A DNA stretch of 64,000 nucleotides from a virus (Duplodnaviria; Caudoviricetes): IMG/VR virus record IMGVR_UViG_3300028364_000013, one strand, 5' to 3'. Position numbers and translations under genes: made by a program. The notes under the pieces are model-generated. The model was not told where the DNA came from. It saw only the letters and a program-made list of their open reading frames with translations, and did not search any database. How positions within the stretch are numbered: the first letter of the stretch is position 1; each line of letters begins with the position of its first letter. This document shows positions 1,200 to 5,385 of this stretch, piece after piece.

Positions 1200-1625
1200 T
1201 TATTGTTCACTGCATGGTGGGTGACCAAACTTGTGAAAGTACTTCAAGGGTCTTTTAAATTTACCATCAACCCAGAATCCCCACTTCCTTTTACTTCTTC
1301 CAGAGAATACGAGTGTCCAACACCCTCCTTCTGGTACATCCACATAATGAGCATGAGTTGCTTTTCTGTATCTGATAGAACCTGCTTTCATCAAGTCTCT
1401 TCCATCATTTGATACATCTGTATAACTCCCTTTCAATACACATGTTAGGAATGACCATCCGTGGTCGTGCATGTACCTCTTGTCATCGCTTCTAATGAAA
1501 TGATGAATTCTGATGGCGAAGAAGTGAAAATTAAATATCCATCTATACGCATAAGGGCACTCTTTTTCTCCAAGAGCCTCATTCCACCTTACTTGAATTG
1601 GTCTGTATTTCTTAAACTTTTTCAT
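1200..1625 (-). CDS. Cupin-fold protein
   Basis: HDHGWSFLTCVLKGSYTD...HAHYVD resembles cupin motifs 1 and 2. Confidence 0.65.
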   Translation of the reverse strand: MKKFKKYRPIQVRWNEALGEKECPYAYRWIFNFHFFAIRIHHFIRSDDKRYMHDHGWSFLTCVLKGSYTDVSNDGRDLMKAGSIRYRKATHAHYVDVPEGGCWTLVFSGRSKRKWGFWVDGKFKRPLKYFHKFGHPPCSEQ

Positions 1626-2131
1626 TTTTCTAAATTTATAAGAATTGTGGGTACAGTTTTTCCATCCTCCATATAAGAATTATCTGGGAGGACTGTGATT
1701 GTGTAACTCTTATCTTCGAGCCACTTACGAAATTTAATTTGAAGTTCCGAATTTCCAGTCATCCAATAAGGAGACATGATAGAAATGATTTTTCCACCCT
1801 CTTTAACGCAATCATACATCTTCATGACATGTTCGCAGTCGATGTTGTCTTTGAAGTTTGGTGCGCCAATTACTCGGTCATATAAATACTTTGGTTTGAA
1901 GTCAAGAAAATTGCTCCAAATAACATTGAACCCCTTATCTCTCAATACCTCTTTGCATTGCGAGTTAAGTTCAATACAATCCAAATCAATGTTTGGATTA
2001 TGTTTAAGAATGCCTTCGGCTAATAAGCCAACTCCTGCAGATGGTTCAAGGACTTTGTGCCCATCTTGTATATCAGCCACCTACATGAAGTGGTCAATAA
2101 CTGACTGTGTTGTTTCTCTTTTTGTTTTCAT
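1622..2131 (-). CDS. SAM-dependent (N6-adenine DNA MTase-like) methyltransferase with in-frame TAG at codon 17
   Basis: ATG at 2131 gives MKTKRETTQSVIDHFM*VADIQDGHKVLEPSAGVG; motif I present; the NPPF position reads GAPNF; TAG at 2081-2083. Confidence 0.7.
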
Positions 2132-2147
2132 TTTTACTTATATTTAG

Positions 2148-2295
2148 TGGCACAGGGTGGGCTCGAACCAACGACCTCTGGGTTACGGTGAGTGAATCTT
2201 TTTCACTTTACACATACTACTCGCCTTATTACGTAATTCACGCTTTTGCTCGGTAACCTTATCTCCAGCGCTCTAACCAACTGAGCTACTACGCC
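2148..2295 (-). ncRNA. tRNA-like RNA with a 91-nt anticodon-arm region
   Basis: Acceptor GGCGTAG/CTGTGCC, D-arm GCTC-AGTTGGTTA-GAGC, T-loop TTCGAGC; anticodon arm extended by GGTTAC/GTAACC and GTGAAT/ATTCAC pairings. Confidence 0.75.
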
Positions 2296-2346
2296 TGGTG
2301 CCGCAGGGAGGAATGACCCTCCACTTTATAGCCTGATGGCTGCAGC
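2296..2346 (-). ncRNA. 51-nt CCA-ending mini-tRNA-like RNA (A)
   Basis: GCTGCAG/CTGCGGC stem + ACCA; GGAGG-GTCATT-CCTCC hairpin; linker TATAAAG; homologous to 2629..2676. Confidence 0.65.
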
Positions 2347-2352
2347 GTGTTG

Positions 2353-2404
2353 TGGGAGAACCAGGATTCGAACCTGAGATTGATACCTTACATATCTTTC
2401 TCCC
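2353..2404 (-). ncRNA. 52-nt truncated tRNA-like RNA (acceptor + T-arm + one hairpin)
   Basis: GGGAGAA/TTCTCCC-A acceptor; TCAGG-TTCGAAT-CCTGG T-arm; only 20 nt between them (GATAT-GTAAG-GTATC hairpin). Confidence 0.65.
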
Positions 2405-2409
2405 ATTTG

Positions 2410-2547
2410 TGCCCGTGAGTGGATTCGAACCAAAGAACTCTTTTCCCACTTTGTTGCAACGTTTCGGAATCGAGTGCAAGAATATACCAACTGTTACTCC
2501 TCACAATTAAACGTTATCATTGCGTCTTGTAATCTTGCATCACGGGC
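2410..2547 (-). ncRNA. 138-nt tRNA-like RNA with expanded D and anticodon regions
   Basis: Perfect GCCCGTG/CACGGGC acceptor; GG-TTCGAAT-CC T-loop; TGCAAGA/TCTTGCA stem enclosing the D-loop-like AGTTGGTA. Confidence 0.6.
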
Positions 2548-2552
2548 GTTTG

Positions 2553-3516: not shown

Positions 3517-3572
3517 TCACTCCATTGAGTGTGCAGCAACCACTACGTGCAAGTGTTTTAACTTTGGTTACC

Positions 3573-3649
3573 TCCTGGCGGCTGAGATTCGAACTCACGA
3601 CCTCTATCAAATATCAGGATAGCGCTCTAACCAACTGAGCTACGCCAGG
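3573..3649 (-). tRNA. tRNA-Ile(GAT)-like with 9-nt anticodon loop and one extra T-stem base
   Basis: CCTGGCG/CGCCAGG acceptor; CTATC-CTGATATTT-GATAG; GTGAG-TTCGAAT-CTCAGC. Confidence 0.7.
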
Positions 3650-3673
3650 TTGTTTTTATATTTCATCACATCA

Positions 3674-4102
3674 TTATGATGCTGTTTTTTTAATGTTATT
3701 AATATGAAAATTACTAACAGGGTCTTCTTTTATTCCTTGAGAATCAACCCACTGTTCGTAGTATTCTTTTTGAGCAAGACGTAAGCTACCTGTTAACCTA
3801 CGAGCTTGGTCGCATGCTTCAATAGCCATAGATGTTGCTTTATGATTTAAGTCTGGTTCACGAAATACAGAAACACACACTCCTCTTTGTCGAAGTTTTT
3901 CAACAAGAGACAATAAAGACTCTTCGTCTTCAATTGATAAACATGCTACGTATTGTGAATTTTCGTACCATTCCTTAAATTGGTCTGGATACTCGACTGC
4001 AAATTGAGACATTGCATGAGCCGATTGCGCAATTTGAGCTCCAGGATGCAAATCTCTTGTAACAACTATTCTAAGTTTTTCATTATTTTTTACCTATTTC
4101 AT
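3674..4102 (-). CDS. PTH2-family peptidyl-tRNA hydrolase-like protein with in-frame TAG at codon 3
   Basis: ATG(4102) AAA TAG GTA AAA AAT AAT GAA AAA CTT AGA = MK*VKNNEKLRIVVTRDLHPGAQIAQSAHA...FREPDL; PTH2 signature IVVxxDL...AQxxHA. Confidence 0.75.
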
Positions 4103-4138
4103 ATCTAAGTTATTTTTAATTATTTTGGTGTTTATTTT

Positions 4139-4165
4139 TATACGTAAAAATTTATAAAATGTTTC
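4139..4165 (-). promoter_or_regulatory. AACATT-N13-CGTATA bipartite promoter motif
   Basis: Minus strand GAAACATTTTATAAATTTTTACGTATA, 37 nt upstream of the PTH2 ATG; six copies in the window. Confidence 0.7.
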
Positions 4166-4170
4166 TATAA

Positions 4171-5283
4171 TTATAAACTTTCTATTAATTGACTCATTTT
4201 CTTTAACAAATCTTCATTATATGCAATTCTTAATAATTTAATTTCACTTTTACTACAGTAATCAGTTTTAATGCTATCGTTTATTTGCGTTAATTCCAAT
4301 GCTTTTTCTCCCCCAAAATAATCAATAGACTTAAAATGTTGCCTACCATCAAATTCAATACAAATATTGTAATCAGGCAAGTAAAAATCAAATGGTAACT
4401 CCATTATATTCCTACATTCTTTAAATTTCTTCTGCCTTTCAAATTTTATTAAATTTTCTTTTAATAATTTTGAAATCCTTTTTTCTCCCTTTGACTCATT
4501 GCAATGTGGACAACCAATACCTCTAATGTGATGTGTTGGCACCTGCTCAAATTCATCGTGAACTGGGCAAATTATTTTTATTTTTGTTTTAGAGTTAATA
4601 TATTTAACAAAAGAATAATCATATTTATTCTCATGAATCAAATGTGACTCCATTATAAAATATTCTTGTGATTTTTTAAGCTTATCAGCACGCTCTATTA
4701 TAGCGCATTTATTACAACCACGCCCAGATAAATGGTCATGAGGAGTTTGTTGAAATTGTCCATGATTTGGACAAATTATTACAATTGGTTTTTTTGAATT
4801 GTTATATTCCGTAAAAGAGTAATCATATTTATTTGAATGGACACTTTGAGCTCTTACTTTGAAATCTTCGAGAGTTAACTTCATTCTATCATTCCCACAC
4901 GATGGACAACCCCTATTAGATAGGTGATTCAAAGGCATTTGATTAAATTCTCCATGATTTTGACAAATTATTGTAACTGGAGTTTTATAATTCTTATAAT
5001 TTACTTTGCTATAATTGTAGCAATCACCATGAATTGATATTGCTTTTTTTACAAATTCTTCTTTTGATAAGGATTGTTTGTATGATTTTTTTAAGTTTCC
5101 ACAACCTGGACAACCAACCCCATTAGCGTGATGAAAAGGCAATTGATTAAACACTCCATGAACTGGACATTTTATATCTATTTTAGTTCTTGCATTTTTA
5201 TATTCTACAAGACTATAATCGTAAAAATTATTATGAATTTTTTGCGCCTTTTTAATGAAGATGTTTTTGTTTTTTTCTTTCAT
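4171..5283 (-). CDS. Putative homing endonuclease: four YDYS..CPxHG..GC zinc-ribbon repeats + PD-(D/E)XK nuclease
   Basis: Repeats F..A...H.N.YDYS.V.Y.N..TK..I.CP.HG.F.Q.P..H..G.GC; C-terminal PFDFYLPDYNICIEFDGRQH. Confidence 0.75.
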   Translation of the reverse strand: MKEKNKNIFIKKAQKIHNNFYDYSLVEYKNARTKIDIKCPVHGVFNQLPFHHANGVGCPGCGNLKKSYKQSLSKEEFVKKAISIHGDCYNYSKVNYKNYKTPVTIICQNHGEFNQMPLNHLSNRGCPSCGNDRMKLTLEDFKVRAQSVHSNKYDYSFTEYNNSKKPIVIICPNHGQFQQTPHDHLSGRGCNKCAIIERADKLKKSQEYFIMESHLIHENKYDYSFVKYINSKTKIKIICPVHDEFEQVPTHHIRGIGCPHCNESKGEKRISKLLKENLIKFERQKKFKECRNIMELPFDFYLPDYNICIEFDGRQHFKSIDYFGGEKALELTQINDSIKTDYCSKSEIKLLRIAYNEDLLKKMSQLIESL

Positions 5284-5385
5284 ACTAATAAGTAGTAAAA
5301 AATTTTCAACAAGTTGTGCGCCAGGATGAATATCACGTATTGTGACTATTCTTAATTTTGAATTATTAATCTATAAGTTTTTCAT
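5284..5385 (-). pseudogene. Duplicated 5' end of the PTH2-like gene, in frame with the endonuclease, with TAG at codon 5
   Basis: ATG(5385) gives MKNL*INNSKLRIVTIRDIHPGAQLV-ENFLLLIS-M(5283); TAG at 5371-5373. Confidence 0.75.

Follow-up and report, generated by a model that had tools for sequence, protein, structure and literature searches.

Which genes does a suppressor tRNA serve in a phage that otherwise keeps the standard genetic code? This question is raised by a locus in the virus record IMGVR_UViG_3300028364_000013 (Duplodnaviria; Caudoviricetes), of which a stretch of 64,000 nucleotides, called the window here, was analysed. The record as a whole is an 81,256 bp virus with 34% G+C, a large lake-water phage, and analysis of the open reading frames (ORFs) of the 81 kb shows a genome that is otherwise in the standard code. 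A suppressor-type tRNA with the anticodon CUA lies at 2686-2758 on the minus strand, and close to it are three genes with an in-frame TAG: a gene for a Pth2-family protein similar to peptidyl-tRNA hydrolases, a homing endonuclease gene fused to a copy of the Pth2 5' end, and a gene similar to S-adenosylmethionine (SAM)-dependent methyltransferases. The favoured reading, to which a probability of about 0.62 is given from the sequence evidence, is that these particular genes are under amber gating by the linked suppressor tRNA and that the phage does not use code 15. The proteins of the cassette would then probably be made only when tRNA-CUA overrides the stop.

The Pth2 gene is interrupted directly after its start, in a segment that is not part of the protein fold. 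The gene has 142 codons (3674-4102, minus strand; Pfam PF01981) and begins ATG AAA TAG GTA, with the TAG at 4094-4096 as codon 3 and G as the next base. The match to PF01981 scores 39.9 bits (cut-off 23, E=5.6e-10) and covers residues 9-109 and profile positions 2-114 of 115. The family profile matches the PDB entries 2zv3, 1q7s, 1wn2, and 3erj, with archaeal Pth2 and human Bit1 among them. An AlphaFold2 model made with 22 phage homologs has a predicted local distance difference test score (pLDDT) of 89.9, and in a Foldseek search with this model the best 14 PDB matches are all Pth2/Bit1 proteins, with target template modelling scores (TM-scores) of 0.56-0.76. From its sequence and model the gene belongs to the Pth2 family and is a predicted hydrolase. 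In the phage Pth2 clade Q26, H29, E82-P83-D84, and T90 are invariant, and the canonical D-A-G-x-T-Q aligns to E-P-D-x-N-x. Canonical Pth2 proteins start right at strand 1. In the model strand 1 begins at residue 9, and thus the leader that bears the TAG is outside the fold and would tolerate any inserted residue. The stretch from the TAG to strand 1 contains no ATG, GTG, or TTG, and the ORF of the standard code, which starts with TTG at 4051, therefore lacks the first strand.

The other two genes have the TAG farther from the start codon. The homing endonuclease is DUF723/Vsr-like (4171-5385, minus strand; Pfam DUF723; PHROG 559, E=3e-110) and is joined, in the same reading frame, to a diverged duplicate of the Pth2 5' end. 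It begins ATG AAA AAC TTA TAG ATT, and the TAG at 5371-5373 is codon 5 and precedes A. Alignment of the two 5' ends shows that the part derived from Pth2 consists of the promoter-proximal region plus the first 28 or so codons; the duplication takes in about 100 nt upstream and ends behind the HPGAQ codons. The methyltransferase-like gene has 169 codons (1622-2131, minus strand), and its assignment comes from PHROG profiles and 180 phage homologs. Its TAG at 2081-2083 is codon 17, lies within a conserved N-terminal segment, and is followed by G. The homologs align over residues 7-169 and the PHROG matches run from residue 7, spanning the TAG.

The genome as a whole does not read TAG as a sense codon. 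Every ORF of the 81 kb (about 85 genes) that gains an internal TAG under read-through was inspected singly. The ORFs of code 11 cover about 94-97% of the 81 kb, with about 97% reached by ORFs of at least 100 aa, and treating TAG as sense adds little. Read-through is clearly required by only three genes, which are Pth2, the fusion of the Pth2 leader with the endonuclease, and the methyltransferase, and all three TAGs are within 2.7 kb of tRNA-CUA. Since no other gene clearly needs read-through, the clustering of sense TAGs near the tRNA is beyond chance. The genes of 1673, 1452, and 1126 amino acids contain no internal TAG, and TAG stops at 3516, 7670, and 58976 are among those of about eight genes that are really terminated by TAG, three of which are homing endonucleases. 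Widespread in-frame TAG and a clear gain in coding density, as found with recoding of the code-15 type, are both absent from the 81 kb. Several extended ORFs with TAG (13976, 30935, 51912, 54017, -2381, and others) are spurious or have a normal start codon available past the TAG, and some read-through ORFs are translations of tRNA genes. One TAG junction is ambiguous: at 74888, in extended coordinates beyond the window, a 328-aa ORF is in frame with an ORF for a patatin-like phospholipase (73847-75877). A TTG stands two codons behind this TAG, and the arrangement may be a read-through fusion or merely two adjacent genes.

These results agree with much of the initial annotation, which was made from the letters of the window. 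It had described a canonical CUA tRNA, TAGs at codon 17 of the methyltransferase, codon 3 of Pth2, and codon 5 of the duplicated Pth2 5' end, giant genes without TAG, and the three TAG stops named above, all of which are right. Its conclusion that this is not global recoding is also upheld by the genome-wide count of in-frame TAGs and by the standard code of the relatives' flanks, described below. It had in addition pointed to a purine behind each of the three TAGs as a mark of suppression. The bases are indeed G, G, and A, but as a mark they are weak in this genome: A also follows five of the eight stop TAGs, so a purine does not separate sense TAGs from stop TAGs.

The three TAGs are real and not assembly errors. 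Each is covered without a single difference in Logan contigs of four lake-water metagenome runs, one of which (X1) may be the source sample. No run recorded as RNA is listed as containing the stretch. If the genes were pseudogenes, or if the TAGs came from sequencing or assembly errors, this would account for the fact that a standard-code gene caller shortens all three of them. However, the identical sequence in four runs, the lack of other defects in the three frames, and the presence of the feature in dozens of diverged phages with intact downstream frames mean that this explanation is effectively refuted.

An early amber codon is found in about half of the related phage Pth2 genes. Single-protein scans of IMG/VR with the window Pth2 and methyltransferase gave no close relatives. 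An alignment-based scan of IMG/VR with Pth2 gave 80 loci with 67 distinct sequences, and 34 of the 67 open with ATG, one to three codons, and TAG, and lack a canonical start in front of strand 1. Of these amber-led genes, 22 have the TAG as codon 3, six as codon 4, and six as codon 5, and the next base is A in 25, G in seven, C in two, and T in none. A Shine-Dalgarno-like GGAGG or AGGAG is found 7-9 nt upstream of the ATG in three loci (L014, L047, and L001), and its spacing fits the ATG, suggesting that this is the true start. Further amber-led Pth2 genes outside the 34 are found in locus L119 and in two huge records labelled 'uncultured phage', LR756501.1 (ATG TCG TAG ATT) and LR756500.1 (ATG AAG TAG ATT). 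The last two have tRNA-CUA genes 0.8-2 kb downstream of Pth2 on the same strand, and the adjacent ORFs are free of TAG. A scan for ATG followed by a few codons, a stop, and a long open frame gave 43 cases with TAG, compared to 16 with TAA and 11 with TGA, and the excess of early TAG consists wholly of Pth2 genes and Pth2-leader fusions. In the flanks of the relatives, coding density rises by 0.030 when TAG is read and by 0.027 when TGA is read. Reading TAG thus brings no more than reading TGA, and these flanks behave like the standard code.

A few related leaders have other stops. In L030 (5960-6040) the leader is ATG AAA GAA ACA TAA, with ochre in place of amber. In L067 (5940-6040) and L080 (5930-6040) a short ORF ends with TGA or TAA and Pth2 goes on in another frame.

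The amber codon has been retained through deep divergence. A maximum-likelihood tree was made from 68 Pth2 sequences. Its amber-led genes fall into a single deep clade of 36 rows, 34 of them with the amber, apart from two that lie outside it. The label has to change four times on this tree, compared to a mean of 22.9 in shuffles. The conservation that the initial annotation had proposed to look for in related phages is present. Identities to the window Pth2 are only 34-50%, and divergence within the clade is saturating. The leader varies in length and sequence between relatives while the TAG is constant, and the downstream frames of the diverged amber-led genes are intact and conserved. In a leader that is dispensable, a neutral codon would not outlast such divergence, and this is the main argument that the amber codon is functional.

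The same evidence bears on drift. Along the route of Borges et al. (10.1101/2021.08.26.457843), the phage could be at an early stage of TAG reassignment in which the suppressor was gained for some other reason and TAGs at tolerant sites are neutral, read through, and regulate nothing. That model is published, and some features of the locus suit it: TAG is rare as a stop (11 of 89 ORFs), the leader of Pth2 would accept any residue, and the TAG of the methyltransferase stands at different codons in three lineages (see below). Drift should however scatter TAGs over many genes, and those that clearly need read-through are the three of the cassette; the flanks of the relatives likewise have no TAG excess. 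In addition, a neutral TAG in the leader should often revert to sense, and 34 of the 36 clade members keep it. Drift is thus an unlikely explanation.

The amber-led genes are linked to a tRNA that could read them. A tRNA-CUA gene is found within 6 kb in 28 of the 34 amber-led loci, always on the same strand and at a median distance of about 1 kb.

The methyltransferase may be a second client of the amber gate. Five relatives were found in IMG/VR with an alignment-based scan. Those of L026/L118 and L119 lie beside Pth2 and tRNA-CUA and have one in-frame TAG each, at about codon 131 in L026 and codon 26 in L119. The other three, elsewhere in phages of 420-676 kb, have none. Including the window, therefore, three of three methyltransferases beside tRNA-CUA have one TAG, at three different codons, and zero of three elsewhere. 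This distribution suggests that TAGs arise, or are retained, specifically in genes of the cassette.

Several observations weigh against gating by suppression. Six of the 34 amber-led loci lack a tRNA-CUA within 6 kb, and a complete 434-kb relative (IMGVR_UViG_3300032236_001850) has an amber-led Pth2, yet no tRNA-CUA among its retrieved tRNA genes. About eight genes of the window phage still end in TAG, five of them with A next, and an efficient suppressor would extend them. Comparison of tRNA-CUA with 268 phage tRNAs gave no assignment of its amino acid identity. Finally, the codon behind the TAG makes a restart conceivable, since it is ATT or ATA in 22 of the 34 Pth2 genes and GTG in the window methyltransferase.

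If there were no suppression, AUG-NNN-UAG would be an upstream mini-ORF of two to four codons, Pth2 would restart at AUU or AUA and the methyltransferase at GTG, and tRNA-CUA would serve some other purpose. Besides these codons and the complete carrier in which no tRNA-CUA was detected, this explanation can draw on the mycobacteriophages Catera and Myrna. Their tRNA-CUA adjoins Pth2 and the motif is ATG/GTG-TAG-GTG, and in Catera a Shine-Dalgarno-like sequence is positioned for the GTG, so both are probably ungated. A restart is hard to apply elsewhere, however. In 12 of the 34 genes and in the window Pth2 (GTA) the next codon is an implausible start (GTA, GTT, CTG, CTT, AGC, ACG, or AAA). A restart would also give no reason for the same-strand linkage to tRNA-CUA in 28 of the 34 loci. 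The methyltransferase shares the residues that precede its TAG with the homologs, and a restart past codon 26 in L119 or about codon 131 in L026 would cost the protein conserved residues, among them the SAM-binding motif in the case of L026. The three different TAG positions make restart at GTG unlikely to explain the methyltransferase in general. Restart without suppression is less likely still than drift.

The endonuclease fusion of the window has counterparts in other phages. In L008, L018, L022, and L070 an HNH or DUF723 nuclease is fused to a duplicated Pth2 leader that includes the amber, directly upstream of an intact Pth2, and in L076 the gene just before Pth2 codes for a nuclease and likewise has an early TAG. 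Homing endonucleases of two families (HNH and DUF723/Vsr-like) thus recur directly upstream of Pth2, mostly with a duplicated and diverged Pth2 5' end. Their recurrence suggests homing into the conserved region that codes for HPGxQ. A motif upstream of both Pth2 copies in the window (TTATAGAAACATTT) is not enriched there, with six matches compared to 3.5 expected.

Together these data agree with the initial proposal that the suppressor is needed by a small selection of genes. The excess of early ambers is specific to Pth2 and its endonuclease fusions, the amber is retained in a deep clade, a tRNA-CUA gene lies nearby in the same orientation in 28 of the 34 loci, and the methyltransferase has a TAG only beside the tRNA. 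In the mechanism that these sequences point to, the phage tRNA-CUA would read UAG codons that are purposely retained in a few cassette genes of a standard-code genome. The core client would be the Pth2 hydrolase, whose mRNA has AUG, one to three codons, and UAG in a short leader outside the fold. In the absence of the suppressor the ribosome would halt after two to four codons. When tRNA-CUA is made and charged, it would decode UAG and outcompete release factor RF1, and read-through would give the full Pth2 enzyme. The endonuclease with the captured Pth2 leader and the methyltransferase just downstream of the tRNA cluster would be two further gated genes in the window. The output of the gated proteins would thereby depend on how active the linked suppressor is, in a feed-forward gate that may act as a timed switch.

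The purpose of the coupling can be inferred less directly. The best guess is that peptidyl-tRNA recycling, or counter-defence, is matched to the load when the phage tRNAs and the suppressor are active. A more speculative possibility is that the Pth2 leader and the linked stop-reading tRNA form a sensor-effector circuit. The leader would gauge the balance between suppressor and release factor, or peptidyl-tRNA drop-off, and set the dose of the hydrolase, whose real job would be tied to stop-reading tRNAs. This proposal is doubtful and is put forward only tentatively. Perhaps the module of Pth2 and suppressor acts against host defences that target tRNAs or termination.

The sequence of tRNA-CUA is that of a canonical tRNA. 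The gene was found by ARAGORN and by Rfam (RF00005, 63.2 bits), and the ARAGORN drawing shows a canonical cloverleaf in which CUA occupies positions 34-36, between U33 and A37. It has G1-C72 and A73, CCA is not encoded, and an A31.C39 mismatch leaves an anticodon stem of 4 bp. Its nearest kin among the 268 phage tRNAs are other Pth2-linked CUA and UCA tRNAs, followed by Met, Ile, and Ala types. Opposite the TAG, homologs have no single residue but D, S, K, R, or E.

The link between Pth2 and tRNAs with stop anticodons seems to be older and wider than the amber gate. The other major Pth2 clade has higher G+C, ordinary starts, and unusual flanking tRNAs. Near non-amber Pth2, tRNA-CUA is found in nine of 33 loci, and the count is 24 of 33 if UCA or UUA tRNAs on a scaffold close to that of the window tRNA-CUA are included. 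Decoding by these UCA and UUA tRNAs is uncertain because ARAGORN reads several of them with 6- or 8-nt loops. Under the more speculative possibility given above, the proximity of such tRNAs in 24 of the 33 loci would mean that Pth2 and suppressor tRNAs are old partners in one phage module.

Cultured phages have parts of the same arrangement. In Tenacibaculum phage pT24 (L123, 3962-4915), ATG AAA TAG ATA heads a fusion of Pth2 with an HD-like domain, and an annotated tRNA-Sup lies 2.5 kb upstream of it. The coding sequence of pT24 gp293 in GenBank begins about 45 codons too late. XacN1 (L125) was considered as an amber-gated case and rejected, as its HD-Pth2 fusion has no amber codon. The authors who described this phage looked for targets of its two tRNA-CUA genes and found none (PMC5852040). 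The domain with the HD motif (WHDIGKP...HFPNHA) is fused to Pth2 or lies behind it, in the order Pth2-HD in pT24, L073, and L076 and HD-Pth2 in XacN1, which hints that it is a functional partner of Pth2. It was not found in the 81 kb of the window phage.

The tRNA cluster around tRNA-CUA contains several unusual elements, all on the minus strand unless stated otherwise. A tRNA-Lys(CUU) at 2552-2628 (ARAGORN; Rfam 53.2 bits) has C, a pyrimidine, at position 37, which is normally a purine. A tRNA with an oversized anticodon loop containing GAT is found at 3573-3649 (Rfam 43 bits; detected by ARAGORN only with -i or -ps). A tRNA-like gene at 2147-2295, called Leu-AAG, has a 65-nt insert 3' of the anticodon (ARAGORN -i; Rfam 41.5 bits). 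The spacer at 2629-2685 is structured (folding z about -3), ends in ACCA, and abuts the next tRNA, and there is a homologous copy at 2296-2352. Both spacers (about 55 nt) have a terminal stem of 6-7 bp around two hairpins and end in GC-ACCA right at the +1 base of the next tRNA, resembling acceptor minihelices with encoded CCA. They were considered as theta ribozymes, which are similar to the hepatitis delta virus (HDV) ribozyme and have a nested double pseudoknot directly 3' of a tRNA (PMC10879173). This is not supported: Rfam gave no HDV-like match even at E<=1, and the predicted folds are simple stems with ACCA at the end. In the region 2352-2520 there are two more T-arm-like segments of the GGTTCGAA type with acceptor-like stems, which neither ARAGORN nor Rfam calls, and no Rfam family matches this region or the ACCA-ending spacers. 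A free-standing gene similar to homing endonucleases lies within the cluster on the plus strand (2815-3516; PHROG 559, 3339, and 9084) and ends with a TAG stop. A scan of 1-9000 for sigma-70 promoters and terminators was at background (34 sites compared to 34.6 expected) and did not delimit the transcription unit.

Farther along the minus strand is a weak candidate for a Macro-domain protein (7657-8181; Pfam PF01661, E=0.0028, below the cut-off). According to tblastn synteny, 14 related loci have a homolog at about 4800-5400, immediately upstream of Pth2, and such a neighbour occurs in the amber-led Pth2 clade as well as in the ordinary one.

The locus shares some features with known systems and differs from each of them. 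Code-15 phages (crAss-like, Lak, and others), in which TAG encodes Gln (Borges et al., 10.1101/2021.08.26.457843; Peters et al., PMC9523058), also have a phage tRNA-CUA in a standard-code host setting. Borges et al. proposed that in-frame stops hold back late genes until the suppressor tRNA is made, and described a 'code change module' that adjoins recoded genes; the word 'hydrolase' occurs nowhere in their text. Those phages have many TAGs in many late, structural, and lysis genes. In contrast, the window has one TAG each in two or three cassette genes, while its large genes and nearly all others are free of TAG, and in amber-led Pth2 genes the position is fixed at codons 3 to 5. Pth2 has been described across jumbo phages under tRNA repair, with no suppressor link and no TAG (Iyer et al. 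2021, PMC7824862), and the paper on the tRNA-CUA genes of XacN1 does not tie Pth2 to a suppressor or an in-frame TAG either. No description of amber-led Pth2 was found in the full-text literature searched.

Two bacterial and phage systems resemble the Pth2 leader in form. The gene for release factor RF2, prfB, has an in-frame UGA, and, as may hold for Pth2, a single early stop in the gene of a translation factor senses the reading of that stop. However, prfB escapes by a +1 frameshift and senses its own product, while escape in the window would be through a suppressor tRNA encoded in cis, and Pth2, unlike the prfB product, is not known to act on a stop codon. The bar minigenes of phage lambda consist of AUG, one codon, and a stop, and they shed peptidyl-tRNA, which is the substrate of peptidyl-tRNA hydrolase. 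The opening of the window hydrolase gene resembles these minigenes. They differ from the Pth2 leader in that they stand alone, do not continue in frame into an enzyme gene, and have no suppressor tRNA.

These results may help to explain what suppressor tRNAs do in large phages. Such tRNAs in standard-code genomes had no known targets, and the cassette supplies concrete and conserved candidates for them. Read-through of the stop would be specific to individual genes, distinct from genome-wide recoding. New elements are the methyltransferase as a possible second client, the nuclease fusions, the opal- and ochre-type tRNAs beside non-amber Pth2, and pT24 as a cultured test system. Because standard gene callers shorten them, as seen for pT24 gp293 and for the window Pth2 without its first beta-strand, Pth2 and the methyltransferase are likely to be mis-annotated in many phage genomes. 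If the reading is true, the gene and its tRNA would form a compact natural translational AND-gate, and this would give a hint at the role of Pth2 in large phages.

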